Program-made: the position numbers and the translations under genes | Shown: piece by piece, positions 1 to 20,000 of the stretch | How positions within the stretch are numbered: the first letter of the stretch is position 1 | Layout: each line of letters begins with the position of its first letter | NCBI GenBank assembly: GCA_008632985.1 | Contig: QPGO01000151.1 | Location: 176,553-196,552 of the forward strand | Length of the DNA: 20,000 nucleotides | Origin: Psammoneis japonica | Taxonomy: Eukaryota | Direction of reading: 5' to 3' | The notes under the pieces: generated by a model | Told to the model about the DNA's origin: nothing | Seen by the model: the letters and a program-made list of their open reading frames with translations, nothing else | Databases searched by the model: none

Positions 1-128
1 TGCAACAGTGGATTGGATGCCAGTTGTGAGCACTTGTTCAAATTTTACAGGTTGGAAAGTTCCGGACATGACATTGAGGAAGGCAGAGGGGTGAGAGCAA
101 GATGATGAGCAAGGGTCAAGACAAAAAC

Positions 129-190
129 ACCAAACCCCAGCAAGCTCCAATTGCTGGAAAACCAAACCCCAGCAAGCTTTCATTGCTGTT
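129..190 (+). repeat. Two-copy 32-bp-period tandem repeat
   Basis: ACCAAACCCCAGCAAGCT at 129-146 and 161-178, each followed 3 nt later by ATTGCTG. Confidence 0.8.
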
Positions 191-318
191 GCGCCCTTGG
201 CCAAACGATGCTCTGGATTGGTGGGCACAGAGGGATGGCCAAGAGCATGGGGGCCCAGATGGCAAAGCAAAGACAGGAAGTTCCAGTCGCAAGCCTCCCA
301 AAAATGCAATGTGGAGTG

Positions 319-359
319 TTTGGGCTGCAGCCCTTTTGGCAGCATGGCTGCAGCCCAAA
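319..359. repeat. Perfect 14-bp inverted repeat with 13-nt loop
   Basis: TTTGGGCTGCAGCC (319-332) and GGCTGCAGCCCAAA (346-359). Confidence 0.85.
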
Positions 360-546
360 AAATAAAATCAGCTTGTGATTTGAACAATCTGGCATGCAAT
401 GAGTGGCAGCGCCATTGTTCTTCACACACATCATGCAACATAGAGTGGACGCACAATGTGAAGCTGCAAACGATGAAAACTGCCATTCAAACAAAATGCA
501 AAATTCATCAATTGATGTTTGAAACTGAGCAATTTGAAAATTGTAA

Positions 547-746
547 AAAATGTTGGGAACATCATCCGCATGGTTGTTGTGTTTGAATTTTCTTGTGATG
601 CATGACAAAAAAAAATGCATCAGAACTGAGATTTCCAGCACGGTGTGCGAGAATGTTCAAATTAAAATCAAGAATTTTTTGGCATGATGGGCAAGAATGT
701 CATGTGCGCATTCAAACACGATGTCAGATTGTTGCCCTGCCAGATG
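547..746 (+). repeat. Dispersed repeat, copy A (partner of 16682-16860)
   Basis: Aligns by eye to the reverse complement of 16682-16860, including identical AGAATGTTCAAATTAAAATCAA and CGATGTCAGAT..TTGCCC.GCCAGATG. Confidence 0.9.
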
Positions 747-1839
747 CAATGGCAGTGATTTTATGATTCAATGTGTTTTTGAGCAGAGTGGTGAATGGCA
801 AACACACTTCTGATTCAGACGTGTTCCAGCTCCAGGTGGGACCTCGTGCTGCTGAACTGTGACATCAATGGTTTTTTGGGTCACACCACATGTGGCGCAC
901 GCAGATGGCTGCATGTGACATGCTGCAAAATTCTTTCACACTCCCTGTTTTGCAAAGCCAAAGGCTTTCTATTTTCAACATTTGCAAGAGCAAAAATGCG
1001 CTGGGCACATTCTTCAATGTCTGCAGAACACACCCAGGCAAACTGTCAATGATGTGCTTCAAGTGTGAAGGAGGAGATGTGTTCGTAAAATTGCCTCTTT
1101 TTCTGTTGGTGATCATTTGCATTTTCATTGCTTGACAAATTTACTGTGGAGCTCGTGTGCAGAATTCTGCGAGCCAAATGTCGCACCGAGTCCCACCTGG
1201 GACTGGAGCCCATCTTCAACACAGTTTTGTGCCTTGTCCACCAAGACCACAGCCTCCTCCTTGCACTGTTCCAACTCCTCAACAAAGTTGACACAGATTC
1301 TTGTTAAAATGTGTTCGAGTTCTTAAAGAAGCACACATTCCTTCCTTCCCCCTCACAAGTTGACCGCCAAGCTGGCGCAGCAGCCAGCGCAGTTTTTGTT
1401 CCAGTGCCTCAGCAAGCACTGACATGAACTGAACAATGAGGATTCACCTTTTGAGTGATCTTGTCAATGAGTTCCTGATGTTGCACCATGAACTGCCTGT
1501 GACCGACATCCGAGGATTCAAAAGATTCCTGCTGATGCATCGACTGCACCTGAGCATCATGTTTTGCTTGCAAATCCATCGTCATGTTGCCAACAAAGGG
1601 TGCTTTGTTTGGTTGCATTTGAATGCCACCATCTTGCTTGCATTTGAGCATCAGCTGCAAAACAGTCCTCTCCCTTGATGAATGAACATCAAGACAGGTG
1701 GGTCCTGACACCAGCTCTTCATGAGCTCCGTGAGCCATCATGCTCTGGCGAGTCGACGCATGCACACACACTGATGACACTGCATCACACGATGGCACAG
1801 CTGAGATTGATGTGCTCTGTGAAAATTTCAATGTCGTGT

Positions 1840-2269
1840 CAACAGGAATCATTCGAAAATGTCGTGTGGGTCACAATTGATGTTTTGCATGAGTGAAAAC
1901 ACAAAATCGTGCAGAAATGCACACAAAGTCATGCGAGAGAGTGATTGGAGCTGACAACTTTTCGGGAACTGAATTGAAATGCTGTCTGATTGATGGTGTT
2001 GGCCTTCACTGTGTGAATCAAAATGCCATCAATCAGACGGCATTTCAATTGATTTCCCGAGAAGTTGACATTCACACATGGATGGATGGACAGACTGATG
2101 ACAATTGTTTTCAGTGCTCTCCTGCACAATTTTCACGTGATGACTCTCAGGACCCGAATGATTCCTGTTGCTGACAAGATGTTTCTATTTTGTTGCAGGC
2201 ACTCTGCAACAGAGAGCAGTTGTTCTCTTTGTGCTTGGTTCAGATTGCAATGGGAATCTTTCGAAAATG
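1840..2269. repeat. Nested foldback/MITE-like inverted-repeat structure
   Basis: Inner 46-bp arms 1955-2000/2022-2067; middle arms 1903-1914/2122-2133; perfect outer 16-bp arms CAACAGGAATCATTCG 1840-1855/2155-2170; diverged direct copy of the outer motif at 2248-2269. Confidence 0.8.
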
Positions 2270-2360
2270 ACCCGTGACGTAAAAAGCACAAAACAGCTGT
2301 GGACACCTGCAGAATCTACATGTTTTTGTGCTGAAACTGTTATGTTCACACAATTTGTGC

Positions 2361-2453
2361 AAAAATAGACTTGACTGTTATCGGGTCAGGTGTATTTTTG
2401 CAAATGCATTGAAGAAAAATACACCTGATCAGAAAACAGTCAAGTCCATTTTT
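2361..2453. repeat. 39-bp inverted repeat (4 mismatches, 15-nt loop) at the edge of the TA-depleted domain
   Basis: AAAAATAGACTTGACTGTTATCGGGTCAGGTGTATTTTT (2361-2399) pairs with 2415-2453. Confidence 0.9.
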
Positions 2454-3220
2454 CGCAAAGTTAAAATTCACTAAGGACAGACAGACAGACTTTTCAATAA
2501 TTATCTTGGTACTGTTCTACACATTTCTACGTAAATGACTCTACAGCGCGAAAGATTGCTATTGAGATGTTTCTGCTGCAAAAAGTCTGTCCATCGTGAG
2601 CAAGCGACAACTCATCAATCGATATTTTCAAGAACTTATAATATTTATGCTTATTAATTGCCGGAAATTCCCACCCAAATTTGTATTCATATCTTAATTT
2701 GTCAAATTGATACTCCTACCAATGCTGATTTACGTGGCCATCTAGTACTAATGTACGCAACGGCGATCACGCACATGTATTATGTGATATTACATCACGA
2801 TGGTTTCTTAATGAACGTAGAACTGAAAAAATGTTGACCACGTAGGTTCCTACGTGCTATGTACAGAAGATGTACTGCACAGTACCGGCATGCAACCCTG
2901 CCGCCAGCCTGACCTGCTTGCCATGCACGCTTCTCACAGTTCACCCCTCGCGAAAATTGCCACGCACACGCAAACCCACAGACACAATGCTGACAAAGCC
3001 GTTCGGATCCGGACGTTGAACGAGAGGAGAGTGTTTTGCCACGATAGATTCATAAACCAAGAACGACCAAGTCCCGGTTCCAGTTGCTCTTCTAACGCGA
3101 AGAACGACGCTCAACTGTTCTAAATCGATTCGTATTGACGTTGTATCAACCGACGAAAAGTTTGTTGCACACACGAACACTCGATAGATCGCCGAATTCA
3201 AATCTATAATAGTACACACC

Positions 3221-5167
3221 ATGGCACGCACGCACGGTCGCCTTCGTCGCCTGCTCCGACCCAAGTCTTCGCGAGAGATGGAGAAGGCACTCCGTTCTGT
3301 GGCAATCGATTCTGTTCCATCTGAAGAAAGCACTCTCCCAGAATCAGAAGTTTGTTCCACTTCCAGCACCGGAGGTCTTTCGCAAGCGGATTCAGACGAA
3401 GACCTCTTTGAGCTATCCACCACCAACGACCCTTATGCAGATGTCCGTGAACGCATGGAAGAATTGGCAGCAGAGGACAAGGCCATGTTTGCCAATCACG
3501 ACGCTACAAAAGAAGCAGAAGCGCATCACGCTGCAGAGCCTTCGATCCCGTCCTTTGCTGCGTACACAACCTATCTCGGTTACGCTGTGTTGATTATCTG
3601 CGGGCACATTCGTGACATTTGCGCTCGCCTTATTCGAACCGGCCGTTATCTTCGTCGGCATACGGACTTTCCCAGTGACGACCTGACCAAGTACGCGACT
3701 CTGCTCAAGAGCTGGGAGAACTTTTACACGAGGCGGCTCTATCACCGAATTCAGGACTGCTTTAACCGTCCCATTGCTTCGAGACCTGGTGCCCACATTC
3801 AAGTGCTGGAGCGTGTCTCTGCGGATGGAAACAAAACCATGGAGCTGTTGGGGCAGCTCGATAACCTTGAGACGGAGCAGCAGAGACGAGAGTACTCGGA
3901 GGGATCGCATTTTCATACAGTTTCTGAAGGTCGTGTGGCGAGGTCTTGCCTCAACTTGGGTAGTTACAACTACCTTGGTTTTGCCGACGACTGGGATATC
4001 ACTTGCCGAAACGACGTCATGGGCTCTCTCAAGCAACTCCCGGTTAGCACAGGCTCTAGCAGAATTGAATTCGGAACAACGGCCTTGCACCGCGAGGTGG
4101 AGGAACTGGTGGCTGGCTTTGTAGGAAAGGAGGATGCCATGGTACTCAATATGGGGTTCAACACGAATGCCACCACGATCCCGGCGCTTGTATCGAGGGG
4201 TGATTTGCTCATTTCGGACGCACTCAATCACACGAGCATTGTGAATGGTGCTCGCGCTTCGGGTGCGTCTATTCGTACGTTCCGCCACAATGACATGACT
4301 CACTTGGAAAAGATTCTCCGCGAAGCCATTGTCATGGGAATGCCCCGAACAAGACGTCCCTGGAACAAGATTCTTGTCATTGTGGAAGGAATATACTCCA
4401 TGGAGGGCGAATACTGTGACTTGAAGAATGTCGTTCGCATTTGCAAAAAGTACGGTGCCTACATTTACCTCGATGAAGCCCATTCGATTGGCGCCATGGG
4501 ACCAACTGGACGAGGCTGCGCTGAGTACACGGGAGTCAATCCGGATGACATTGATATCATGATGGGCACCTTTACAAAGAGCTTTGGTGGCATGGGCGGG
4601 TACATTGCCGGAAGCAAGGACGTGATTTCCTTTCTGAGGCGGAAATGTGCTGGTAGCTCATACCACAACTCGCTTAGTCCAGTGGTTTGTCAACAGATTA
4701 TCTCCAGCTTCAAGGTATGTGTCATGGTTCTGTGTTGTATGCGACTACTGTGATTATGATTTTCGCGTTGACTAACTAAATTTTATTATCTACGTTTTCA
4801 GGTCATTATGGGACAAGACGGTACCAATATCGGAAAGCAGAAGCTCCAGGCACTTCGCGATAACTCCAACTACTTTCGCATGCGCCTAACAGACATGGGC
4901 CTTCACGTTCTCGGCCACTATGACTCACCCATTATGCCCGTCATGTTGTACAACCCAACAAAGATTGCTGCGTTTTCCCGCGAGTGTCTCAAGCGAGGAC
5001 TTGCCGTGGTTGTCGTGGGTTTCCCTGCCGTTCCCATTCTCATGTCGCGGGCCAGGTTCTGCATCTCGGCTGGGCATACCCGAGAGGACTTGGACAGGGC
5101 TCTCCACGAGATTGATGAAATTGCAGATATCCTCAAACTGAGGTATGCTCGTTCTACGTTTGGCTGA
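3221..5167 (+). CDS. LCB2: Serine palmitoyltransferase catalytic subunit 2; exons 3221-4714 and 4802-5167, ~619 aa
   Basis: Motifs [48 protein letters not shown]-lysine [24 protein letters not shown]. Intron 4715-4801 (GTATGT..ACTAAC..CAG) joins FK|VIMG in frame. Confidence 0.96.
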
Positions 5168-5399
5168 GCTACACACCAAGTGCAATTCCACGGTCAGACA
5201 CGACTATGGTGCTCTACAATTCTTAATCTTTTATTGCCTGCAAGAGCTCGCTGTCTTGTGTAATTGTTTTATAATGAAAGCAGTTGTTTGTATCTCGTTA
5301 ACGCTCTGTCGTCTGATTACCGAATAACGAACGAACATACATGCTTAAAGAGGTACGCCTGATCTGAGTGAAAGAGAAGTCCTCAGGTGAGCTCTCATT

Positions 5400-5520
5400 C
5401 CTATTAGTCTCTACGCAGGCTTGCAGTTTGGTCAAGTGGTTGAGCACCACCACTATGCTAGGTAGACTGTAGACTGCTAGAGTAGTCTACCCTAGTCTAC
5501 TAGCTAGAAGTAGCTAGCGC
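5400..5520. repeat. TAG/CTA-rich low-complexity intergenic patch
   Basis: ...GCTAGGTAGACTGTAGACTGCTAGAGTAGTCTACCCTAGTCTACTAGCTAGAAGTAGCTAGC. Confidence 0.7.
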
Positions 5521-5787
5521 TCTTGACCGACAACTCCATCTTACTCTACCGTTAATGCCGGATGATGGTGGTGATGGGAGTGCACAGTGCGCGCGACGAA
5601 GAATGAACGACCACGCGACCACCGCCCGACACGTCAGTTTTTTTCGTTTGCTGGGCAAGCAAAATGTGAACAGCGGCTATGATATCGATTGGGGACGAAA
5701 TTGAAAATAAACGCATTTTTGTGCGGCATCGGTGCCTCAATCCTGTTGACTTTGCCTGACGATAGTTTTCAGATAGAGAGAATAGCC

Positions 5788-6416
5788 ATGCTGAACTACG
5801 CTCCAACACTTTTGCTTCTACTTGTCTCTCTCATCGGAGGGAGCAATGCATTCTTTGGTTCTGTGGGTGCAGGCGGAAAGCCTTCGGTTTCATCGCCTCA
5901 AGCCGATGAGGCCGTAGCGATTTACGGGGAGAAGTATCCGTTCGACCAGCCGGCGAAGGAGGGGAACTCACTTGCTAGTTTTGGCATGCCCAGCAAAAAA
6001 ACCTACGGACCAGAGGCGCGCCGTCGATTCACAGACAAGAGCGAAGCGGCAGTCCGTGCTACCTTTGCGGAGCTTGCCAAGAACTATGGCACCGACAATG
6101 CTCTGGAAATGGTGAAAGTCATGCCCACGTGCTTGGCTTTTAACAAGGACAACTTTGCACCTTCGCTAGCCAACTTTGGAGAAATCTTTGGTGAAGAAGA
6201 GGCGCAGCAAATGGTTCAACGCAATCCAGGTTTGCTGGCAGTAAAACCCGCGGATGCAGCCACATCCACTGAACAGACAATGGTATTTTCTTACATTGTG
6301 GGTGTGACACGTCCGGTAGGGGGGATTCTATTGGGTGCTTTGGCCATTGCCCTTTGTCGTTACCAGTCGAAGCGGTGACTGGAGTATCGCTTCGTTCCGT
6401 CATCTTTGGACAATAG
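5788..6416 (+). CDS. Putative plastid-targeted protein of unknown function with C-terminal TM helix; apparent 1-nt frameshift near 6354
   Basis: ATG 5788 gives hydrophobic signal peptide MLNYAPTLLLLLVSLIGGSNA followed by F (ASAFAP-like). As given, the ORF stops at 6378; adding one T to the TTT run yields ...ALAIALLSLPVEAVTGVSLRSVIFGQ* ending at 6416. Confidence 0.75.
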
Positions 6417-7125
6417 ACACAGACGACGCTCATGTGAAAGCCTATACTGCTCACGCAAGGCAAAACTTATAATTCGATAATTCCATAGGATTGAAGATAC
6501 CGGTTTTTGAAAAGGCAGTTGACTGCAGTTCTAGAGAGAGGAAATCTTCTTACCGGTATATTCTCTACTGGAAGCTTCAAAACATTGGAAGTTGTGATTG
6601 CGTGTAGGTAAGAGAGAGAGAGAGAGGAAATAAACAACACTATTACATGCCAGTGGTATGGTACTGTACCGTCCGTTTCAGCTCTCTCGCTCTCTCCACT
6701 GATCTTGTGAGAAGATGGAAGGGGATATTTCCTGCAACCTCAGATTCTGAATATTTTAATTTCTTTTCACATTTCATGTGTGTTAAATAGAAATATTTAT
6801 TACATAAATACCTTGTAGATTGGACAAAGTAGTTCTGTTACGAACTTATATACTATTATAGATGGAATAAGGATTAATATGGCAATTGGACATTAATATA
6901 GATATTCGTAGGCATAGGTGAACAAACCCTGCTCTGACGTTGTCTGAATTTTTTCGAAAAAAGAGTCGGGAACAAACACGGAACAACAAGATCGAATGAA
7001 AACAGCCGTGACACGAACGTCGTCAGCGCTGCTCATTCCACCCCAAAGAAATTCTCACTCCTCGCAACTCAGTGTACGAGTAGAGAAAAACTTGGCTGCT
7101 TTTCCTTTAAACATCACTATCGAGA

Positions 7126-8097
7126 ATGGCTTCGCATCTGCCAGAAGCAAAAAGCTGTTCATCGCAGAAGTTCAACGATATGCATGATAGCGAGTTGACC
7201 TCACCAACTGTTACTGATGCGGGGAGCGTCTCGGATGATGACGGGAGTGGGGGGTGGTTTGGAATCGGTGCCGACCTCAAGACCTTCGCCAGATCTATCA
7301 AAAGCTCCGTACCGAATGCCATTGATGGGATCGCAACGGCTATATCGAAATCCGCCATGGCAGTCGCAGCGGAGTTCAGTGAATTGGAAAGGGATGCTGA
7401 AATAGAAGCGAAGCGGTGGAGGGAGGAAAATTATGGGACGTCGCAGGATCAAGAGGCGGGCGTAACGTTACAGCTGCCTTGGGAGATACAACGTGGTGAT
7501 TCATTGGATACCTTGGTCGAAGACACGGTGCTCAAAATGAAGATTCTTAATCTTAGTCGTGATGAAAACATGTTTTTGAAGCCTTTCAGTGTTTCCGCCG
7601 CATCTGATGGCCGCACGACTTGTGGCAAGGCTGACTTTGTGCTTGACGAAGCAAGAATCGACCTCATCAGGCGTCTGTTAGCAATTGATGAAAGTCTTGC
7701 AACCGTGCACGCCAGACTCTCAGGTGAGAATTGTAACAAAACATGTCAGCAGTGATCAATTCTCTCCAATTATTTGGACCAACACTTTACCCTTGTTTCG
7801 TCCCGTACATCAGGCCGTAGCGATGTCAAGGAAGCTGTTTTCTGGAAAAACTATTTTCATCATTGCGAAAGACTTCGAAAAGAGCACCTTACCAAGAGAA
7901 GACCTAGCCAAGCAATCACATCGGGCTCCTCATTGGGATCCTTAACAGCCGTACGCAGCTGTGGTGAAGACGACGCCGCGTCGTTTGTTATAGCAAGCCC
8001 ACCTCAAAGTATGAACAGTGTTCTTTCCACTCACTCAGTTGGGGATATGGTGCTTGTTGGTGGTATGGAGGCACTTGACACACACGATGAAAAATAG
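7126..8097 (+). CDS. BSD-domain protein; exons 7126-7723 and 7814-8097
   Basis: Phase-1 intron 7724-7813 (GTGAGA..CAG) gives LLAIDESLATVHARLSG|RSDVKEAVFWKNYFHHC, with the BSD FWxNYF signature. Confidence 0.85.
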
Positions 8098-8358
8098 GAA
8101 GAATGGGAGAGTTCTCTCGAGGAGAATTCATACGAGTAGCAGTTAATCTCACTCTCTACTAGAGTGACGCCAAGATAAGAGTCTGATGTTTTTCCTACTT
8201 CTCGATTCTGCTTTTGCCGTAAACCTAGAGAGCAGCACTTAATCTCACTTGGAGAGAGTGGTGTCAAGATGAGGAACTCAAATTGTTTGAAATCAGTTGT
8301 TCTCGATCATGTGTTGCTCGTCGCGCCTGTGCAACCCACGTGAATTTCAGCAATTGTA

Positions 8359-8790
8359 TCCTTCGTTCGAGAGAGAAGAAAGACAAAGGCTATTATATCC
8401 GGTAGGTGCGATAGGCAACATTGGTAGGCATTACCAAGGAGCTTCGTTGCGGCCACATTAACAGTTCTTGGTCCCCGAGGAGTCGTCATTCCGTTGCGAA
8501 AACAGAAGCTAAGATACTGAGGCGAAGCTGTTTGGCGAGAGAAGGCCACTATTACCCTCAATGCAGTACAGTAATGTAGAGTATAAATCCTTCGTTCAAG
8601 AGAGAAGAGAGAGAAAGGCCATTATATCCGGTAGGTGCGATAGGCCACATTGGTAGGCATCACCAAGGAGCTTCGTAGCGGCGACAGTAACAGTTCTTGG
8701 TCCCCGAGGTCATTCGGTTGCGAAAACAGAAGCTGCTATAATGTTTGGCGAGAGAAAGTCACTATTATCCCGGATGCAGTAGAGTATAAA
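8359..8790. repeat. Diverged tandem duplication (8359-8587 and 8588-8790) downstream of the CCT gene
   Basis: Both units begin TCCTTCGTTC.AGAGAGAAGA, share ATTATATCCGGTAGGTGCGATAGGC and TAACAGTTCTTGGTCCCCGAGG, and end GTAGAGTATAAA. Confidence 0.92.
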
Positions 8791-8810
8791 GGTAACGAGG
8801 CGAAACTCAT

Positions 8811-10674
8811 TTATGTTAAACTCATTAGATCCCGCATGAGTAACTCGTCTTCCTTCTTAACAAAACGACCTTTTACTCGAAGTCGACTGTCCGCGAAATT
8901 CTTCCTCACGTCATATTTGACAGTCTTTGTCCAAACGCGATGATTTCTTTTAGCCAGGAAGCGCTCAATCCTAATTTTTCTGCTTTCAGGAGAGTATGCA
9001 CCAATCCACCCATCTGGGCGTTCTACTTCAAGCAGTCCATGAATATCCATTGATGTTCTCAAGTTGGGGTCGCTCATTGATCTTGGGCGGCCTAGGCCAG
9101 ATGCATTCTCCTTCCTCTCTTCTTCTTCAACTCTTTTATCCTGCTTTGCTTTTGCAGCCGCCTTCTTATCCTTCCGCTCCTGCTTCTCGCGTGCCTCCCT
9201 CTCTTTTCTTTCCCGCATGTTCTGCTCTCGCTTTTCTTTCTTCTCTCTCTTCTCCCTCTCCTTTTGTTCTTTCTTGGCGAGTTTCTCACGTCGACGCTCA
9301 GCTGCCAGTTCACTTTTAGTCTTTATCCTAGATTCGCTCTTTGATCTACCGTATTGCGCAAGGCTTGCCCCGATACCGCCCTCGCCTGGATGTGACGGGC
9401 TGCCGCCGGTTACGTTCAGACCCACCATGCCTCCATAAGGGTTTGCCCTTCTAGCTCTGACACATGGGTGATGCACCATCGCCCAAGAATCGGCGGTCGA
9501 CCCAACCACCATAACCATCACGCCCATCCTGTGACGACGGGGTTTCTCCCAAGAGACCACCAAACGCCAACGAGTTCGATCGAAAACGTTGTTGCTCTTC
9601 GAGAATGGTGGGAGACGGATCAATGTGTCCCGATCCAAAAGCTTGCGGCGGCAGCTTGAGGTACTCATCACTTTGGCTAGTAAAATCCCCATTGAACTCC
9701 AAATCCCCAATTCCGTCGTCTCCTTCATAAGCAGATGGTGAAACCATGTTGGGTTGAGCTTCTTCCACCGGATTGTGCTTCTGCTGCGTGACCTGCCCTG
9801 GATCTATTGGAATAGGATTTGAGTGGGTACTCTTTGAAGCAATCCCCAGATGTGACAATATATCTGCATCCGGTGCCCCAGGATGACTCGGCATGTCCAT
9901 ACCGGCGCAGAGATCGTCATCTACAGTCAGAAAATCCAGATCCAAATCATCCAACAAGTTAATGTCAGCTGAAGCGCGATTCAACAGCTTTCCACTCGTG
10001 ATCATGTTTTCGAGAGTGCTCTTGTCTCCCCGTTCATACTTGTCTAGAGCAGACTGTAGATCCTCGTCACCTGAAATAATGAGATCTTTGAGAATAGCCT
10101 TCTGGTGTTGGTCGATGAGTCCTGCGTCTTCCAGTTCCGCAGCAGACCGCAGTCGTCCAGAAATGCTCTGAGGAAACGAGAAACACAAAATGATATTTTA
10201 AGCACGAAATCAAGCAAAAGTTCATGACAACGAAAGCCGAAGATCTGAATTACTTACACCACTTCGCGCACGCTTTCCAAAATGTTGCGCTTCATAAGAA
10301 GACGGGGCGAAGGTCGGAGGAGTGTGCGACAACGGATCCATAATCCCACTGAGAAAAGCACTTCCAGAAGAACCGGCAGATCCAGATTGAAACTCGGGGT
10401 TGTTGGGTGTCGGTATCGGCTTCGAGGCTGGTGGTCGTGTCGGCATTGGCCTTCCAACAGGAATGGGCTCCGTGGTACTCACGGCCGTTTGAGTGGGACC
10501 CGATGTACTAATATTGCCATAACCTTCATCCTCGTTGTTCATCGCAGCAACCATATGCGCAACGGTCATGTCCACTCCAGACGACTCGTCAATGTTGAAC
10601 CCCAAGGAAGAGTACTCATCGTCGGTGTGCGAGCTGCCGAGGCGCTCTGCGGACCCTTTCAAATCAGCGCTCAT
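8811..10674 (-). CDS. CCT-domain (CONSTANS/CO-like/TOC1) protein; exon 1 10674-10258, exon 2 from 10167, apparent frameshift near 9445-9470
   Basis: C-terminal WIGAYSPESRKIRIERFLAKRNHRVWTKTVKYDVRKNFADSRLRVKGRFVK is a CCT motif, preceded by a K/E/R coiled coil. Intron 10168-10257 (GTAAGT..CAG) joins RARSG|SISGRLRSA. Confidence 0.88.
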
Positions 10675-11260
10675 CACTGAATTCTCTCTCTCGTGATGTC
10701 GCTTCGTGTCTCAACGGTACCGGTAGGCTTTCTGCTTTCTCCGAAATTACGTGATCAAAGATTGCTTTTCTGTGAATGCAATAGTGTGCAATCGAGATAG
10801 ATTGCGTTGTTCTTGTCAGTTCCAGTTATGATAATGCTATAGGCTTGCTCTACATACCGAGTGGGATTGATTCTTGAAGGGTTGATTGAGGGGGTCGACG
10901 CGGTCAACCATGAGCGTGTTGCCGGCTGTTCCGATCGATGAAAATACCACGCGGGATGCACCGATACCAGAGTTTTACGTGGCGTTCTACAGGGTTCAGA
11001 ATTTGATAGTGATTTGGTCCAATATGAATGAAATTTCATCAAAGTTCTGGGCCATAAATAAATCTAAATGTTCTGACTCCTCACTGAGTCACTGTTTTCT
11101 GATTTCGTTAAGTAAATATAACTTTTATTGCTTCATACAAATATATGAATAATGACATTTCCGAAATCACCTTTTCCCGCCAAAGCAACTCACAAAAGAT
11201 GCCAAAAAAACCAACGCAACATTATTATTATTTGAACATACAGTAGTGGCGAACTTGACC

Positions 11261-11781
11261 ATGTCTTTTCTTCTCAAGTCACCCTTGCTCAAGTCGCTGT
11301 TTCGGGTGCCTGCCCCACCGCGGCCTACCGTTCCATCCGGAAAACAGCGAATTTGTGTCGCGGGATATGGCACATCGCACAACACGGGAAGGGCTCAAAA
11401 AATTGCTTTGGAAATCTCGCTGCTCCATCCAGATCGTTTCGAGACTTGGTTTTACTTTTCCTCTTTTCATTATCATGACTTTTTGAAAGAAATCAAAAAG
11501 GAGATTCCAAAAGAGCAATTGACTAGCAAATCCACAATGGATTCGGAAGGAACCATGGTTGAACACCGCTCGTCGCCTTTTGTTTGGTTGGAGCGCTCGG
11601 ACGAGAAAAATGACAAGATTATCGACGCTATTGGAGGCGAGACAGATTTTGTGAATGGGTCAACAAGCAGTTCCCAAATGATGCATCGATCCAAAAGTTG
11701 GCAACACTCAATGAACCTCCGCTGACGGAACTGTTCTTTGACAATGCAACACCGGGTGGAACGTGGATGGAGACGAAATGA
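11261..11781 (+). CDS. Glutaredoxin/thioredoxin-like fold protein lacking CxxC; apparent 1-nt frameshift at ~11637
   Basis: RICVAGYGTSHNTGRA...HRSSPFVWLE...IGG, then in the -1 frame RDRFCEWVNKQFP...GGTWMETK* (stop 11779-11781). The cis-Pro-like SP and IGGxD motifs are typical of the Grx fold. Confidence 0.7.
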
Positions 11782-12232
11782 TTAGTTATGGATTACTGAC
11801 TCTCCAACAACCGGCAACTCGTTCGTATCGAGTATAAAGATGTAGAATTGTTGGTAGCCATATAAAGTAATAGAACTCTACCCAGTTAGGGAGGTTGTTA
11901 GAGAACAGCCAGCAGGTTCAACCGGAAAGTATTGTAGCTTAAGAGCAGCACATTGCAAGGCTCCTGGCACGACGAAACAAGAAAGGCACTGAAAACTTGA
12001 TGCGGCCTTCTGTGTTCCGACCATAAGGTGACATTCGACCCAACCACCGGATTGGTAAAGAAAAACAGTGCAGTATTATTAGGTACCTTGCAGCGATACG
12101 GAGCATAACTAACTTTGAAAGTCAAAATCGTTGTGCTAATTGTTACACAATGTGAATATTTGGGATCGGTAGCAAGTAAAGAATGAAAAGTGATGCTTTG
12201 GAACCTAAAGCAGCGCAGATGTACTACACTAT

Positions 12233-13523
12233 TTAGTCGTCCATCGGAAAGGCCTCTTCGTTCTCGATTTCATTCAAGTGCGGGTCAGACTCTTCTTCCA
12301 ATATCGTTGCACACCTACTAGCTCCCTCGACAAGGACACCCAGGGAGGCGCTGCGAGGTCTTCGCGAGTATGCTCGGCCTCCTTGATCGCTCTCTGATGT
12401 AAGGAGGGATTCGACAGTAGGATCATTTCGATTGCCGACAAAGTCATGCGGAACAAGAACTGATCTCCCTTGCTTGACCTTGAACGTCGAAGTTTCATCG
12501 CAGCTTTCTGCTCTCAAGCGGCGCTGCTTGGCCGCAACCCCAGAGAGCTCGACGAGCCCTCCTTGCACACGGTCATCTCGAGTGGCATTCAGGAGAGCTG
12601 TCATTTTATCCATATACGTTGAAGTGCTGTCTAGACTCTTTCCCAGCATCGACGGAACAACGGGCCCTCCAGGTGTAGCTTGACATTCAGTAGCAGCAGC
12701 AACTGCGCTTATTTTCCCGCTCATCAACTCAGAAGCGGAGGGCAGACTAGTACTAAACATAGATTCTCCAGTTGAGTCTTGAGGTTGTCTGCACGGTGGC
12801 GGCGGCATCGCTTTGGCAGACGAAGAACGAATGAGTCGGCCTGGAATAACAACACTAGTCGTTTCAGATGAATGCTTTTGTTTTGACAATGCCCGTCTCG
12901 TCTTTCCTCCGCCGGGTGAATGCTTTCCCCCTTCAAGTATGCTCCTTGCATGTCTTGCCATGAGTGAGCAGACGAGACATACATGTTGTTGTTGCTGCCG
13001 TCCAGAGGCTTTCTGCGCTTGCTTTTGTCTGCCTTGACGAGCTCTGATCTCTCGGCACTGATCATAATGAGCAAGAAGTTTTCTCGTTTGACAGCACCCT
13101 TGAAACTCCTTTGGGCATTCTGAGCTTCCCACAGCCTTACAGGTCTTGATATGCAAAAGGACAATTTTCGATTCGGCACAGCCTCTTACAGGACACCGAT
13201 AAGGGCTCTCGTTGCAACGCTACACCCGACGATACAGAGCCAGTAAGTGAGAATGGCATTAACGGAGAATACTCACAAAATAATTCGTAGAAGAAACTTA
13301 CCTGAGCATGCAATATTATGCACAGCGACGCCGCAGCCTTTTTAGCCTTGGATACAACCGCACCAACATCCGAAGAGCATGAAGGCGATTTCCTATCTAA
13401 AAGTCGTGGTGAAGTTGTCTCGTTCTCAGATCCCATTGGATCAGTTACGTTGTCATCGCTGATGTTTCTCGAACTAGCTTCACTCATTGGTCCCACGGCA
13501 TCACAAACAACAGGAGCTGTCAT
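12233..13523 (-). CDS. TAZ-type zinc-finger protein; exons 13523-13302 and 13219-12233
   Basis: Intron 13220-13301 (GTAAGT..TAG) gives ILHAQ|RCNESPYRCPVRGCAESKIVLLHIKTC...CPKEFQGCCQTRKLLAHYDQC...CLVC, i.e. three HxxxC-C-C Zn sites, then a low-complexity tail. Confidence 0.85.
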
Positions 13524-13952
13524 TGGGAGGACGTCCTTGTGGACTGCCTTCCACTTTTGTTATCCCAATGTATTTCAAATCCGAAAATCAATTTCTTTTC
13601 ATCGATTTTGTGGTTGTCGTTCCATCAATCAAATCGAATTCTTGCGTCTGGCGCGAGCAAAAGCAGTGGATGGAGATGGATGAATTCTGTTCGTTTGCTC
13701 CTCGCCAACCATCAGTCTTGCTTTGCGTTTTTCTCACTTGCGCACACAGAAATTGGTGGTGGATGTTGACGTCGCTTGTCGTAGAAAGGACACAGAGAAC
13801 CTCGTACGAAATGTGTGGCTACAGAGGATTTCGGTACAAACGCACGGCCGGTGAGTCGGTCGCGTGGCGCCAATCAAAATTCAATTATTAATGAACTTAT
13901 AAGATATATACTCTGGTTCAAGTTGGAAGATTGTCTGTGTGTTGTCGTGTCA

Positions 13953-14100
13953 GACTACGGTACTACTCCGTAGTATAAGTACTACTCTAGTAGTTGATTT
14001 CGGCGCGGGCACAAAACAGGACCATGCTCTCTCTAGCTAGAGTAGTAGCTACTACTCTCTCTAGAGTAGCTAGCTAGCTAGCTAGCTAGCAGTAGAGAGT
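13953..14100. repeat. TAG/CTA-rich patch with (CTAG)n microsatellite
   Basis: GACTACGGTACTACTCCGTAGTATAAGTACTACTCTAGTAG and GTAGCTAGCTAGCTAGCTAGCTAGC. Confidence 0.8.
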
Positions 14101-14175
14101 AAAGAAATCGAAAGCCACTCGTGCTGGAGGACAATGAGATTAAGAAGAACTATCGATCGATATAGCTGTTGCTTA

Positions 14176-15602
14176 CTATGGCTTCCAGAGAAAGCTATCA
14201 AACATTCGCTTTCCCATTTCAACGCCCAGAAAGAGAGCAGCGTTCGCTGGGAAAGCTCGAAGAAGTGTTGGCCCTAATCCGCTAAAAAGACCTGGCACAC
14301 CCCTTTCTCGCGCGATTTGCATCAACTTAGGAAAATAGCTACCGACAACCTTTGTGTCCCAGCTAGATTGCACATTTGTCTTTGGCACGTCAAACGGCAT
14401 GGCGACTGAAAACAACCCATAATGCAAATGAAACGGTGAGAGGACCCGTCAGTCTCGTCAATGTTGACTAGAAACGTCAACAGGCAAAATCTGTCTTACC
14501 TGTCCATCCAAACATACCGGCTAGCCCCCCACTTCACAGCGGCCACAATGTATTTCGAATCAGGGAAGAGAAAGCATTCAGTCTTGTTATCGTTTCGATA
14601 GCAACAATCAGCAGGTAGGGCCCTACATCGCCTCACCTTATAAAGAAATTCAATTCATCTGGCATAGATGGTGTGTACGTTCGGAAAAAGTATTTAGATA
14701 GCTCGTACCCACCAAAGAAAAAGGCATAGAAGGATCCATCACGCATCAATTGAGCATCAAAACCTACAAACATTGACTGGGGGGTCGAAAACACACTAAA
14801 CGATTCAGTGGATCATCTGCGCACGGCGAAGAGTTTCGTCGCATTTTCCGGACGTACCCTGATTCCTTGCTTCTTCAACATTTCTCTAATGATGTCATTG
14901 GATGATTTTGAACCAACAACTACCTGCGTCTTTGCCTTTATGGCGCGAGTGGTGAACGCAACTTATGTGAGTGATCGAGTTTTTCGTTGGAAGTAAAATT
15001 ATGTCGACCCTCAGGGACTGGTATCCTTACCTTCACAACCTCACTCGGCAACAAGACAGTTGCAGAGCAACAGCCAGTAAATGATCCCTATCGCGTATAC
15101 AGTGAGAAAGAAACCATGGTGACAAAGATATTAGCAACGCTGTACGAAAAACAAGCAGGCTGTTGACGGACTCGGCCACCCACCATGAAAAACGGCTTAA
15201 CGAGATCAGGTCGTCCACCTTGAATTCGTTCTTCTGGATCGTCGGGGAAAGCTCGTTTTAGCGCTTCATTCACTCCGAAGGCCATTGCATTCTCAAGAGC
15301 CATTCCCGCTGCCGTTGGGACCGACCCTTTCCAGAAAGCTGCTATACCCTAGTTGCGAAATCAAAGTAAACTGAGAAAAGAAAACAAGAAAAAATTCCCG
15401 CACACTAACACTCCTCACTTCATACCTCATTTTTGAATATGCTTGATGTGGTTGAAAGAACTCCAGGATATTCCGCAGGATTCGTCTGCATTCTAACCTT
15501 GATCGTGTCGAGAGGCTGACCAGTATAACAGCAAGTTATCGATCCTAACGTCGCCGAAAATACGTCCTTGCTCACTTCACGAGGGTCGGCAATGTCTCCC
15601 AT
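14176..15602 (-). CDS. Mitochondrial carrier (SLC25), probably amino-acid/ornithine/carnitine type; 7 exons: 15602-15426, 15348-15184, 15087-15031, 14935-14858, 14776-14637, 14531-14500, 14405-14176 (292 aa)
   Basis: Three Px[DE]xxK signatures (PLDTIKVRMQ, PSEVVKAKTQ, PFDVPKTNVQ), FWKG, LMRD and LLRAFPANAALF. Six GT-AG introns give an intact 879-nt frame. Confidence 0.92.
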
Positions 15603-16681
15603 GGTTGCTTGCGCTTTCCCTGCTAATATTTCGAACTAAGTTGGAAAGTGCGCTCTCTGCCGATGCCACAACAGAAGAGTTCAAGTGGCGCGCGGTTGAG
15701 TGGATTTGGAGAGATTTGAAGTGGTTTTTGTGAAAATCGTGTTGTGAGAAAAAAATTGCAGCCAGCAGCCAAAATCGGTCTTGAGACAGAGGCTGGTTGT
15801 GCCATTGCCCAGGCAGGTGCGAGATCTCAGAGATGCAAGTGGATGTCAAAGCGATGAGAGCTCTGCAAGAGCCACCCACAGCTCCATGGCCATGTTTAGA
15901 TGGGAAAATGCAAAACCTTGTCTTTCTGCCCTCAGTGTCTGAGCTGCCTGTCTGTGGGGCATGGCGGGCGGCAGCACCAAGACACACAACAGCAGCTTTC
16001 ACTGCGGCAGATGAAAAACACACTCCCGGCAACAGGCATGCAAAAAAAGACTTCTGCAGCAAGCCAAAAAGGGCAGCAAGCTTGAGCTCAGCTCTCAAAA
16101 TGTGAGGTGCAGATTGGCCCATTGAGAGTGGTGGGGGGGTGCTGCTGGTGTGTCACCTGCTTGTGCAGCACTTTGTCCGTGCTTTTTGCTTTGAGTTTCT
16201 TGGCTCTCCAGCCTCTTGTGTGTGAAATGTCACATGTCACAAGGCATCCATCACCCAGCTGTTTCATTGCAGCATTGTCTGCTCTCCAAATTTGCTGACA
16301 AACAAACTCCTTCTTTTGTTGCAACCACCATGACACTCAACAACTGTCACACCACAGTGGCGCGCAGCACACCAGCCAGCCAGACAACACAGCTGATCAT
16401 CAGCCAGCAAGCACACAAGCATGCACACACATCAACATGCATCAAAAACAACTTCATAATTTCATGTGCAGCTGACACCCCCCCTGGAGCATTTTTTCAG
16501 TTTGTCAAAGTTCTCTCTGTTGTGCTGCCAGAGTCTTCAATTTTGGAGCCAGCTCAAGATCTGGCTGCACAGAGACCACCAGCATGCCATTTGAGGTCAT
16601 GACTTGGCAGGAGTTGCAACAGCAACACACTTGTTTTTTTTGTTCTCATGTGTGCACCACTTAAAAAAAATGAGATCTGTT

Positions 16682-16860
16682 CATCTGGCGGGGCAATGAT
16701 CTGACATCGCATGTGCGCAACGTGCCAACAAATTTTTGATTTTAATTTGAACATTCTTGCATGCTGTGCAAGAAATCTTGGTTCTGATTTCAACATTTTT
16801 GGCATGTTGTGCAAGAAAACTCAAATGTGACAAGCACACGGATGACATTCCAAACATTTT
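16682..16860 (-). repeat. Dispersed repeat, copy B (partner of 547-746)
   Basis: Reverse complement aligns to 547-746 apart from a ~20 nt indel; differences are dominated by TG<->CA and CG<->TG/CA. Confidence 0.9.
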
Positions 16861-17350
16861 CAAGTGCAGCACTTGGTCGCCTTTCACCGTGTGACAAATT
16901 GCTTTCCGTTCACTCCTCTTTTCAGCATGAAACAAATTGCTTTCTGGTCACTCTGCTTTTCACCATGTGACAAACCACTTTCCATTCAATCCCCAATTCA
17001 CATCACTTGCAAACTCTGCTTTTCTTTTCTTTTAAGGCCAATTTTGTTCTGACATTCAAATGACATCCTGTCTCTAATCCAACTTGCATTGGTTCCAGAT
17101 GTGAGTTGATTCTTGGTTAATTTTGCTGTTGTTGTTGTGCACTGTTTGCCAGTGAGTGTTGCCATTCAGCTGCCTGTGCGTTCGTGCTGAGCTCCTTGGC
17201 CGCTGCTGTGGGTTGTTGTTTGCTCTGCCTTCTCCTGAACCCATTCAGGTTGAAGCACTGTTGTCCATGGCCTCTGCTGCTGGAGTCTCTTCCTCTCTTT
17301 TCTTGTGTCCATTGTTCCTCCCTGCTGCTTCCCCTTTGCTGTTGCTCCAA

Positions 17351-18502
17351 TCAGTTTTTGGAGCTGCCCATCCCTTCACACTGTTCTTTTTTTTTCCTCT
17401 TTCTTTTCTTTCCCCACGCACTCTCCAATTTCTTTGTCTGCAGGTGTTGTGCATCAACTCTGGCACACTCTGTTCTCTCCTCCACCACCACATTGTGCAG
17501 CTCATTCATTGTGCCTTTTGATTCCACTCTGGCTCCATTTTTGATTTCTCTTTTCTTCCTGTCCCTGGAATGTGCACTTTGGGGGCACGGGCTGTGTTGG
17601 CTCTTGCACCTCTTGTCCTCCTTGAATTGGGTTTCTGTCTCCACCATTGCCATCATCATCCAGCAGCAGTTGTTGCACATGAGCCTTGCAAAAGCCTCCA
17701 TGCTTGTCATCAGCCAATCACCAATGGCCTGGTTTTCCTCTGTCTCAAATTGTTCCATTCCAGCTGCCATAGAACAGAGCTGTTCTAAGAACTGGATGTG
17801 CACCGGTGGTGATGCCCTTTGCTTTTCAATGTCTGCTGCACTCTCTAGACCCCGTGTCTGGCCATGGCCAACCAATGACAAATGTGTGAGCAGCACTTTC
17901 CATCCCATTTGCATGCCACCTGCATCGCATGTGCCAATCGTCTTTTTCCAAAATGCCTCCTGTCTGTTGTTTCATCTCTGATTTAGTCTTTTCCTCACCT
18001 TCTCCTTGTTCAGCTCCCAGCAAGCTGTGCAGTCACTGTTGGCCACATTGAGGTGCTTGCAAACCTTTTTCTGCATTTTGCTGCCAAACACCAACTCAAC
18101 ATTGTCATGCACTACAAACTTGGTCTTTGGGTGCACTGCCATCACAACACAGTTGGTCATTTGACCATCCATGAACTTCCTCTTGGCTTCCTCTGAGCTG
18201 ACGACTAACATCCCTGCAATCTCCACATTTTGGGATCCCATCTCTGCCACATCATGGGTGCCAACTGTAACCAACAACACAGTCCGTGTCAGCGGCATGC
18301 CCGTGTCTGTCTCAGTGTTGCTCTTGCCGCAATGCACTGCCTGATGAATTGTTTCATGCTGACATGATTGCCCACCCATCTCCACAGTGTTGTGCACACA
18401 ATTTTTTTTCTTCCGCCTTGAATGGAGGCCAATTGTGCCTGCCAGCATGCCAATGGCCTGTCTTTTTTTCTGCTCCTCCTCTTTGAATGCCAAAATTTTC
18501 AA
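17351..18502 (-). pseudogene. Fossil protein-coding sequence, probably a TE-associated ORF
   Basis: ORFs 17972-18502 and 17351-17914 are in one frame, separated by a single TGA (R-*-N-N, plausibly CGA->TGA). Protein-like segments PKTKFVV..ELVFGSKMQKKVC..WELNKEKVRKRLNQR and TSMEAFARL..NN; no Tyr. Confidence 0.5.
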
Positions 18503-20000
18503 ATGGGTCAGTTCACAACATCAGCTCATGCATTGTGGCATTTCGTTTGAATGGCGGTTTTTGCCATTTGCAGGCTCACATTGCATGCACACTGTTGCAC
18601 ATTGCACGCTAAGAACAATGACACTGCCACTTTTTGCATGCCAAAATTTTCAAATGGAATGCCAATTTTTGTTGCTTAGCTCATGGTTTGCTTTCCATTC
18701 CCCTGTGCTCTCATCCGTTGCTTGTCATCCAGTCTTCGACCTCTGACCCATCATCCTTGCTTGTCTTGGCCCATTGTTCCTTGAATCTTGGAACAAGTGT
18801 TCCAGGGAAGTGTCCAACCCCCCGTGATGTCCCTCCATGGCCGCATGGACACCAGCACAGTGTGCCCTCAGTCCAATGAGTTTCTTTCATTTGCAAAAAA
18901 CACCAGGTCTCCGCTGACTGTCGGAGGCCACCAATCAGTTGCTGGCAAGGGTTCCAATCCCCTGTCATGCATTTGCAGATGAGCTGCATTCAATGAAGTT
19001 TGGCCATCCTCAATGTCAATTGGTTCCCATTGACGTGGTGGCAGAGCACACATGATTTTTGGGAATCTGCAAGTGTTGTCTCCATGCTTGCATGCTGCCA
19101 CAATGGCGGGAGGCAGATGACTCTGCTGGCACATGTGCTTCGCCACTTTCCTGTGGCTGAAACTGAGAGGCAAAGTTGCTTTGTCCAATTGCTCTTCACA
19201 ATGGACCCTGCTCCACCCCACAAACTCTTCCAAAATGTTGGGCATCCTCCATCTGTCAAAGTCCTGTCTGTTGAAGTCCAGCCATCCTGCAACAATGTGA
19301 CAATTGACATCTCAACAGCTGCAGTGCAGCCTGCTTTCGTCCAGCTCATGGTGTAAATTCCATGGGTGGAAATCTGCAAAGGCACTGTGCAATCACCCCA
19401 CGAGTGCAGCCATCCTGTGTTTCTGTGTTGAAGCAAACCTTGGATCACCCATGTCACTCCATCGCTCCTTGCATGCATCTTCAGCTGCACTTGTCTCTTG
19501 CAAAGCACGTGTTGCATGTTGCTGCATCTGTTTGTTCACTGTGTCCATTTTCAACAGGTTTTTCACATCAAATGTGAAAAGACAAAGTCCACAATGCTCT
19601 CTGTTGATGCCAGGTTACCCAGCTCATCCATTTGCAGGCAATGACAACAAAACCCCGGCAACGCACGCATGGTTTTTTCTGTGTTGCTGTTCTTTGTCAA
19701 CTTGCTCATGATTTGTCAGATGCATTCTCTCTTGCCATCCATTTCACAGTGTCCTGGATTTTGCCTTTGTTGCAAAAAGATGAAAAGGGGGGCATCAGTC
19801 ATGACTTTCACCAACACTCAAAATTTTTGTTTCCGGGCAGTTGACACATCCTTTGCCACAACATGAAATTTTAGTTTGGGGCAGTTGTCTCATCATCAGC
19901 CCAATGAAACTGTGCTGTTTCCTCAAACACCTTGATTGCAGCATCTTGTTGGTCCATCTTTTGTTGTGTGCAATGAAATGCTTTCACTTCTGCACATTTC

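Follow-up and report, generated by a model that had tools for sequence, protein, structure and literature searches.

Depletion of TpA and CpG in two domains of a diatom genome window: TG/CA swaps between repeat copies as a probable footprint of TpA-targeted mutation besides CpG decay

Two copies of a dispersed repeat in the window, i.e., the whole stretch of 20,000 nt of DNA from the diatom Psammoneis japonica that was analysed, differ by serial swaps of TG and CA. These swaps are a symptom of larger, kilobase domains in which CG and probably also TA became TG/CA. Two such domains are situated at either side of an expressed 13-kb gene island of normal composition, and both continue beyond the window (Table 1). 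The participation of CG was read directly from aligned copies. We consider it probable that, besides CpG decay, a TA-targeted process acted on this DNA as well. The footprint was observed in a single window of a single genome.

Table 1. Features of the window, with positions counted from its first nucleotide (o/e, observed/expected ratio).
Feature	Position	Strand	Evidence
Left domain, almost no TpA, poor in CpG; continues past window start	1..2250	.	Composition
Right domain, almost no TpA, poor in CpG; continues past window end	15640..20000	.	Composition
Left copy of dispersed repeat, two contiguous pieces (364-542 and 547-746)	364..746	+	Scores 172, 168 vs shuffle maximum 32
Right copy, piece matching 547-746	16682..16860	-	139 identical columns, 28 transitions, 8 transversions, 9 swaps
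Right copy, piece matching 364-542	18494..18669	-	Approx. 1.6 kb away from the other right piece
38-nt tandem repeat, 3 copies, inside right domain	16878..16995	.	Column CG / TG / CA
Hairpin-like inverted repeat, left domain	1952..2070	.	One TG/CA swap and one CG/TG site between its arms
Very high-copy element inserted in pseudogene (inside the 796-1223 gap)	817..1117	.	Depth 41,687 in bin 668-1334
High-copy element with TA retained, at left-domain edge	2248..2460	.	Loose end at 2248 in 14 contigs
N-terminal part of decayed STAND-type P-loop NTPase gene	1224..1573	-	phmmer E=1.7e-11; tblastn 1e-20 to P0145
Further pseudogene piece, aa 127-145 of P0145	739..795	-	14/19 identical
Normal gene island, internal control	2500..15600	.	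TA o/e 0.45-0.78, CG 0.77-1.15; best protein matches 73-79% identical; spliced X2 contigs
Serine palmitoyltransferase, intron-poor ORF	3221-4753	+	Best 120 matches 63-79% identical
CCT-motif protein	8811-9728	-	Similarity match

In the left domain, the two 1-kb windows of 1-2000 display o/e values of 0.09 and 0.06 for TA and of 0.34 and 0.44 for CG, together with 1.87-1.90 for TG and 1.69-1.82 for CA. The corresponding values in the right domain (16001-20000) are 0.04-0.12 for TA, 0.17-0.27 for CG, and 1.73-2.00 for TG/CA. The ranges given for the gene island in Table 1 derive from the 12 central 1-kb windows (3001-15000). In total, 31 TAs were counted in 6.6 kb, 12 of them in 1-2270 and 19 in 15640-20000. 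The domain edges (approximately 2186-2280 and 15640-15900) are sharp. On the left, a TA at 2186 is followed by dense TAs from 2280 on (2280, 2317, 2341 onward); on the right, TAs are dense until 15637 and the next one is found at 15897. Non-coding, AT-rich intergenic DNA of the gene island retains TA, e.g., 27 TAs in 6751-7000. Due to the sharp edges and the TA content of this non-coding DNA, the TA depletion is domain-specific and does not represent a genome-wide neutral equilibrium. The domains may be methylated or heterochromatic.

The TAs that survive in the domains are biased in context, with 25 out of 31 situated in TAA/TTA compared to 220 out of 573 (38%) in the gene island, and none of those in 1-2270 and 15640-20000 occurs in ATAT, ATAC, or GTAC. 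This bias suggests a process with flanking-base preferences. It also speaks in favour of an alternative in which selection or a structural constraint, e.g., a chromatin or centromere-type function or the avoidance of a nuclease, excludes TA and CG from the domains. We regard such a constraint as improbable, since the domains contain a frameshifted pseudogene, decayed repeats, and inserted high-copy elements, which are expected to decay neutrally, and since the repeat copies diverge precisely at the YR steps, which is divergence and not conservation. With respect to other motifs, TGCA is the commonest 4-mer of the flanks, and GATC is under-represented there (16 vs 36 expected in a second-order model).

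TG and CA are randomly interleaved along the domains, with 247 runs vs 254 expected in the left (z -0.6) and 492 vs 493 expected in the right domain (z -0.06), which fits independent, site-by-site hits on either strand. ADAR enzymes prefer to edit an A that follows a U. A-to-I hyperediting of retroelement transcripts at the RNA level, followed by reverse transcription, would thus convert TA to TG, but such editing would be strand-coherent within each copy, in conflict with the random alternation of TG and CA. Moreover, AA is not depleted (0.0896 vs 0.0782), the signature spans a host-type pseudogene as well as unrelated elements and ends at sharp edges, and neither a reverse transcriptase nor any other Pfam domain was identified above noise in the flanks (28 ORFs and 12 whole frames, stops read as X). 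We consider hyperediting highly improbable. The same set of ORFs and frames yielded no viral or transposase domain, and a comparison to Rfam resulted in 0 matches.

The plus strand of 16500-20000 is strongly pyrimidine-rich, with an AT skew down to -0.42 and a GC skew of -0.2. Long overlapping ORFs of up to 286 aa occur on both strands of the right domain. They lack a Pfam match, are explained by the scarcity of stop codons and the pyrimidine-rich plus strand, and are likely spurious.

The swaps were first noticed between 547-746 and the reverse complement of 16682-16860, for which the earlier note reported approximately nine dinucleotide swaps and four single changes of CG versus TG/CA. A transition-tolerant global alignment reproduced both figures, with exactly 9 swaps and 4 such sites (2 CA/CG and 2 CG/TG) next to the columns listed in Table 1 and 29 gap columns. 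CG/CG occurs 3 times and TA/TA once, and no column has TA versus TG/CA. Twenty-two of the 28 transitions are located inside aligned YR dinucleotides, which account for 82 of the 175 ungapped columns. Adjacent transition pairs are more frequent than in 10,000 random placements (10 vs a mean of 4.2, P=0.003).

The repeat is longer than given by the earlier note, as 364-542 is contiguous with 547-746 and matches 18669-18494 with 131 identical columns, 27 transitions, and 17 transversions, among them 5 swaps and 6 CG-versus-TG/CA sites. These two are the only left/right pairs above the shuffle scores, and the decayed copies are 69-73% alike. For both repeat pairs and the hairpin arms of 1952-2070 taken together, 15 out of 20 adjacent double transitions are TG<->CA (binomial P=9.7e-7, the baseline being the 22.6% of flank dinucleotides that are TG or CA). 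The control repeat 8358-8573 / 8587-8786 in the normal part of the window contains 0 swaps in 13 transitions.

This control repeat is a tandem duplicate within the gene island whose copies are 83% alike. Its 13 transitions include 3 TA-versus-TG/CA sites and one double change of CG versus TA. These TA-type differences could be due to chance or could mark an early stage of the same process.

Two structural explanations were rejected. Inversions of 2 bp would produce TG/CA swaps, but inversions of other dinucleotides require paired transversions, none of which were seen; since the depletion of CG and TA explains the swaps, no new type of event is needed. Likewise, a giant transposon that encloses the gene island and has the two flanks as its terminal inverted repeats was rejected, as only approximately 380 nt are shared.

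At some columns CG ancestry is shown directly. Both repeat pairs together contain 10 CG-versus-TG/CA sites and 3 CG/CG sites, and in the 38-nt tandem repeat (16882-16995) a single column reads CG, TG, and CA in its three copies. For TA, the earlier note's caution that two copies cannot separate TA from CG ancestry holds. TA was found opposite TG/CA in 0 of the 79 aligned YR pairs of the two repeat pairs. This absence is weak evidence, because residual CG is three times as frequent as residual TA and only approximately 1-3 such columns are expected from the relative residual frequencies.

These observations speak in favour of deamination of methylated CpG alone, in which case all swaps descend from CG and TA is lacking for some other reason, e.g., because the ancestral elements were TA-poor. 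All columns that could be resolved directly are CG (the 10 sites and the CG/TG/CA column), and a one-class decay with p=0.8 fits the numbers of steps with none, one, or both copies converted (3/10/28 observed vs 1.6/12.9/26.6 expected). In addition, CpG methylation at a diatom transposon locus is described from preliminary bisulfite data in the available part of PMC2806351, and the ancestors of the repeats could have been unusually rich in CpG. Nevertheless, methyl-CpG decay alone would need CpG to have made up 8-12% of the ancestral dinucleotides, roughly double its density in the neighbouring genes, and it leaves TA o/e values of 0.04-0.12 across 6.3 kb of unrelated elements unexplained. Considering also its predictions for base composition and the codon changes of the pseudogene, both described below, we regard it as unlikely to be the whole explanation.

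The composition of the flanks argues for the loss of both steps. Compared to the middle of the window, the frequency of TA is 0.0049 vs 0.0437 and that of CG 0.0152 vs 0.0547, while TG and CA each amount to 0.113 vs 0.0695. The masses are close to balanced, as CG is lowered by 0.040 and TA by 0.039 and TG+CA is raised by 0.087, with both the total of YR steps (0.246 vs 0.237) and the G+C content (0.466 vs 0.474) unchanged. In a simulation that took the neighbouring gene island as ancestor-like and, starting from this central region, converted CG and TA to TG or CA with the strand chosen at random, conversion of 71% of CG and 89% of TA reproduced the flank dinucleotides with a KL of 0.004 (G+C 0.475 vs 0.468 observed; AT 0.0633 vs 0.0638). 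Conversion of CG only resulted in a KL of 0.042 with an AT of 0.0744, and left TA at 0.044 (observed approximately 0.0047). It predicts a G+C content of 0.434 and a loss of the GC dinucleotide to 0.050, neither of which was found; GC, at 0.072, is even raised in the flanks. Based on this composition, TA was probably present formerly and converted, rather than never there.

The density of swaps points in the same direction. Across 350 columns, the 14 swaps, 10 half-decayed sites, and 3 CG sites still intact imply that the ancestor had 41 self-complementary YR steps. By our estimate, 3-6 of the 14 swaps may have begun as TG/CA in the ancestor, with CG or TA as a brief intermediate, which reduces the number to 29-35. 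CG at the density of the gene island predicts 19 such steps (P=5e-6 to 0.018), CG and TA together predict 34 (P=0.14-0.86). TA ancestry is thus supported, because the swaps are too many for CG alone. Some of the 547-746 swaps probably descend from TA, and it is unlikely, judged from composition, swap density, and the pseudogene described below, that all TG/CA-polymorphic columns trace back to ancestral CG.

A yardstick independent of the repeats is given by the decayed NTPase gene of the left domain. With the minus-strand frame of 800-1900 as query and its stops read as X, exhaustive searching by phmmer identified 7 proteins, the best with the E-value in Table 1. They belong to a family of P-loop NTPases of approximately 480 residues each (PF25199 nSTAND_NTPase5 / AAA_14) for which a word-indexed search found 66 relatives, the named ones from diatoms; the same type of search with the pseudogene frame itself gave 0 matches. 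One relative is fused to a linker-histone domain. The function of this diatom-wide family appears to be undescribed. A scan of metagenome contigs with the family alignment was discarded, since it returned only 2 loci of 72% G+C that represent unrelated bacterial DNA.

Relative to P0145, the closest full-length relative, aa 7-94 correspond to 1573-1301 and, following a frameshift, aa 98-120 to 1292-1224, with TGA and TAA stops in frame. Between this part and the piece at 739..795, 430 nt have been inserted, among them the very high-copy element. Pseudogene and P0145 differ at 62 of 130 codons. Twenty-two of these differences need two or more steps; the single-step ones comprise 7 (plus 1 ambiguous) of TA type, 9 (plus 1 ambiguous) of CG type, 6 other transitions, and 16 transversions. 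Compared to the family majority, 27 of 66 columns differ, with 4 TA-type and 6 CG-type changes, 2 other transitions, 8 transversions, and 7 multi-step changes.

At conserved codons for Arg, Gly, Glu, and Ala, CG-type changes are clearly more frequent per available site than other transitions (6/83 vs 2/213, P=0.007). For the TA type, the enrichment over other transitions is approximately 3- to 5-fold and borderline (4/85 vs 2/213, P=0.057; 7/85 vs 6/213, P=0.056). The TA-type changes include Tyr to His at 1561 and 1501, where the closest relatives carry Tyr, Tyr to Cys at 1333, Ile to Val after T at 1423, where 62 of 65 family members have Ile, and Thr to Ala after T at 753. Methyl-CpG decay alone does not account for the conversion of Tyr and Ile codons to those of His, Cys, and Val. 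Together with the CG-versus-TG/CA sites, the composition, and the swap density, the pseudogene supports the earlier note's interpretation that the swaps arose when a palindromic TA or CG was hit independently on opposite strands after copying.

A public DNA run (X1, 141 Mb of contigs) contains 89% of the words sampled from the window, and 2,714 contigs were placed on the window at 80% likeness or more. Compared to a depth of approximately 55-62 for single-copy DNA, the depth is 225 over 1-667, 7,348 over 2002-2668, and 355-704 over 16676-18676, and it peaks in the bin of the 817..1117 element. Parts that are single-copy at 80% likeness are equally TA-free, e.g., 16009-16675 with a depth of 58. 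The contigs also bear on sequencing or assembly artefacts, e.g., miscalls at modified bases, in favour of which nothing was found. Contigs of this run, which may be the assembly's own data, match the flanks at 99% or more, e.g., with 3 differences in 731 nt over 1146-1874, and the pattern agrees with real divergence between copies and with the protein family. An artefact is the least credible of the explanations considered and hardly deserves weight.

In case of the 817..1117 element, contigs end loosely at 816/818, 878, 984, and 1052, and a joint is located at 1117. In contigs that adjoin 878, CA of the window is replaced by CG-rich versions, and a single small contig reads TA at two spots at which CA is found in the window. 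Further TG/CA swaps were seen in contigs adjoining 984 and 1052. These instances are anecdotal.

The high-copy element at the edge of the left domain contains a palindrome (2361-2453) with arms of 39 nt and could be a mark of the domain boundary or a recent insertion. Since this element keeps its TA, copy number alone is no trigger, unless the element is young.

For the gene island, the named matches of the serine palmitoyltransferase are from diatoms, e.g., Nitzschia inconspicua and Craspedostauros. Contigs of a second public run of the same sample (X2) skip 4713-4799, 7720-7809, and 10168-10257 (87, 90, and 90 nt), stretches with GT..AG or, on the opposite strand, CT..AC ends. These stretches represent short introns, and X2, though not recorded as RNA, amounts to a transcriptome. 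From the protein matches and the spliced contigs, the window is nuclear DNA of a diatom without close relatives in the protein collections. The flanks are covered by X2 with a depth of 0.24 in one bin and zero otherwise, which was counted as evidence neither way. Among 40 listed contig differences, all but 3 in single-copy DNA, the share of tandem substitutions is unusually high, e.g., AC>GT at 9670-9671, TA>CG at 15098-15099, TC>CT at 4540-4541, TA>GT at 4784-4785, and GTC>AGA at 13452-13454. A (TAGC)6 microsatellite lies within a palindromic stretch (14031-14099) where contigs of the DNA run break and 14061-14096 was skipped as a repeat.

Taking the evidence for TA and CG together, we propose that two dinucleotide-specific transition processes would act on silent diatom DNA rich in repeats and pseudogenes, each turning a self-complementary YR step to TG/CA. 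The first would be deamination of methylated CpG, in which a C-to-T change converts CG to TG or CA. The second would target TpA by A:T to G:C transitions, so that T-to-C or A-to-G changes convert TA to CA or TG, a process similar to that measured in Bigelowiella natans. In both processes, one randomly chosen strand would be struck at a time, so that two copies of the same CG or TA would end up as a swap in approximately half of the cases and with the same product in the other half. A transition that recreates CG or TA would soon be resolved again, and old copies would keep toggling between TG and CA. The TA process could be due to an adenine deaminase acting on DNA, which has been proposed for B. 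natans, or to modified thymine that pairs wrongly with G. The suggestion of a modified thymine at TpA is based on the hydroxymethyluracil of dinoflagellates.

More generally, it is tempting to speculate that a diatom genome-defence process marks domains of repeats, pseudogenes, and perhaps foreign DNA, and that TpA in these domains is turned to TpG/CpA very rapidly, alongside CpG methylation, until both steps are erased. It would be of the same kind as in B. natans, possibly old and widespread in the supergroup of stramenopiles, alveolates, and rhizarians, and carried out by a DNA adenine deaminase or a TpA-reading thymine modification. For this wider proposal, taken as a whole, we would claim slightly less than an even chance.

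In open-access papers and bioRxiv, neither domains depleted of TpA nor hypermutation at TpA were found to be described for diatoms. TpA-specific hypermutation of DNA was first measured in 2026, in one alga. If the interpretation is true, the saturated footprint in a diatom would extend the process beyond a single lineage, and a second system would become available for finding the enzyme. Diatoms are a large group amenable to genetic work, for which reference genomes, methylomes, and transformation exist. TA-free, CG-poor, and TG/CA-rich domains would then be a simple genome-wide marker for DNA that a diatom treats as silent or foreign. Such domains also call for caution, since their few stop codons lead to long spurious ORFs and since the fast divergence at YR steps causes ordinary similarity searches to miss repeat copies.

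The footprint shares features with three known systems. Methyl-CpG decay of silenced repeats, e.g., in vertebrates, leads to CpG depletion and an excess of TpG/CpA. Similarly, CG is converted here to TG/CA on either strand, CG is kept in one of two copies, and the CpG o/e is low in the repeats and not in the neighbouring genes. However, methyl-CpG decay spares TA and lowers G+C and GC dinucleotides, whereas the domains have hardly any TA left, an unchanged G+C content, and more GC. Fungal RIP converts CpA to TpA, so that TA is enriched and G+C lowered. With RIP of Neurospora and other fungi the domains have in common transitions in repeated or silenced DNA, a dinucleotide preference, and sharp edges, but the outcome is the opposite, with TA erased (o/e 0.04-0.12) and CA/TG enriched (1.7-2.0). 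According to PMC9998398, diatoms possess enzymes of the DNMT4 type, which are relatives of the RIP/MIP enzymes of fungi.

By analogy, the closest precedent would be the TpA-only hypermutation of the chlorarachniophyte (rhizarian) B. natans, described in a preprint of 2026 (Mettrop et al., bioRxiv 10.64898/2026.01.13.699255), to the accessible part of which the following comparison refers. In an integrated giant-virus region of mutation-accumulation lines, 210 out of 211 mutations were A to G or T to C, all of these at TpA, at a rate of approximately 6e-7 per site per generation, which is raised approximately 1000-fold. The B. natans genome contains 124 clusters of TpA-poor, CpA+TpG-rich windows, and an ADAT2-like adenine deaminase was proposed as the enzyme. 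The word "diatom" is absent from the text at hand. Thresholds for both TA depletion and TG/CA gain are passed here by 16001-20000 (four consecutive 1-kb windows) and 1-2000 (two, cut by the window start). As in B. natans, TG/CA products occur on either strand and are confined to local regions with a normal gene island beside them. In B. natans, transposon, viral, or unannotated DNA is over-represented among the targets; the flanks analysed here contain multi-copy elements and the pseudogene of a multi-copy diatom NTPase family, i.e., dispersed repeats and a pseudogene were seen as targets and no viral gene was found. In contrast to B. natans, the host is a diatom (stramenopile), and the process is known from its footprint and not from a measured rate. 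The depletion is far deeper than in the B. natans virus (TA o/e 0.04-0.12 vs 0.45 region-wide), and it is coupled to a strong loss of CpG, so that G+C does not rise.
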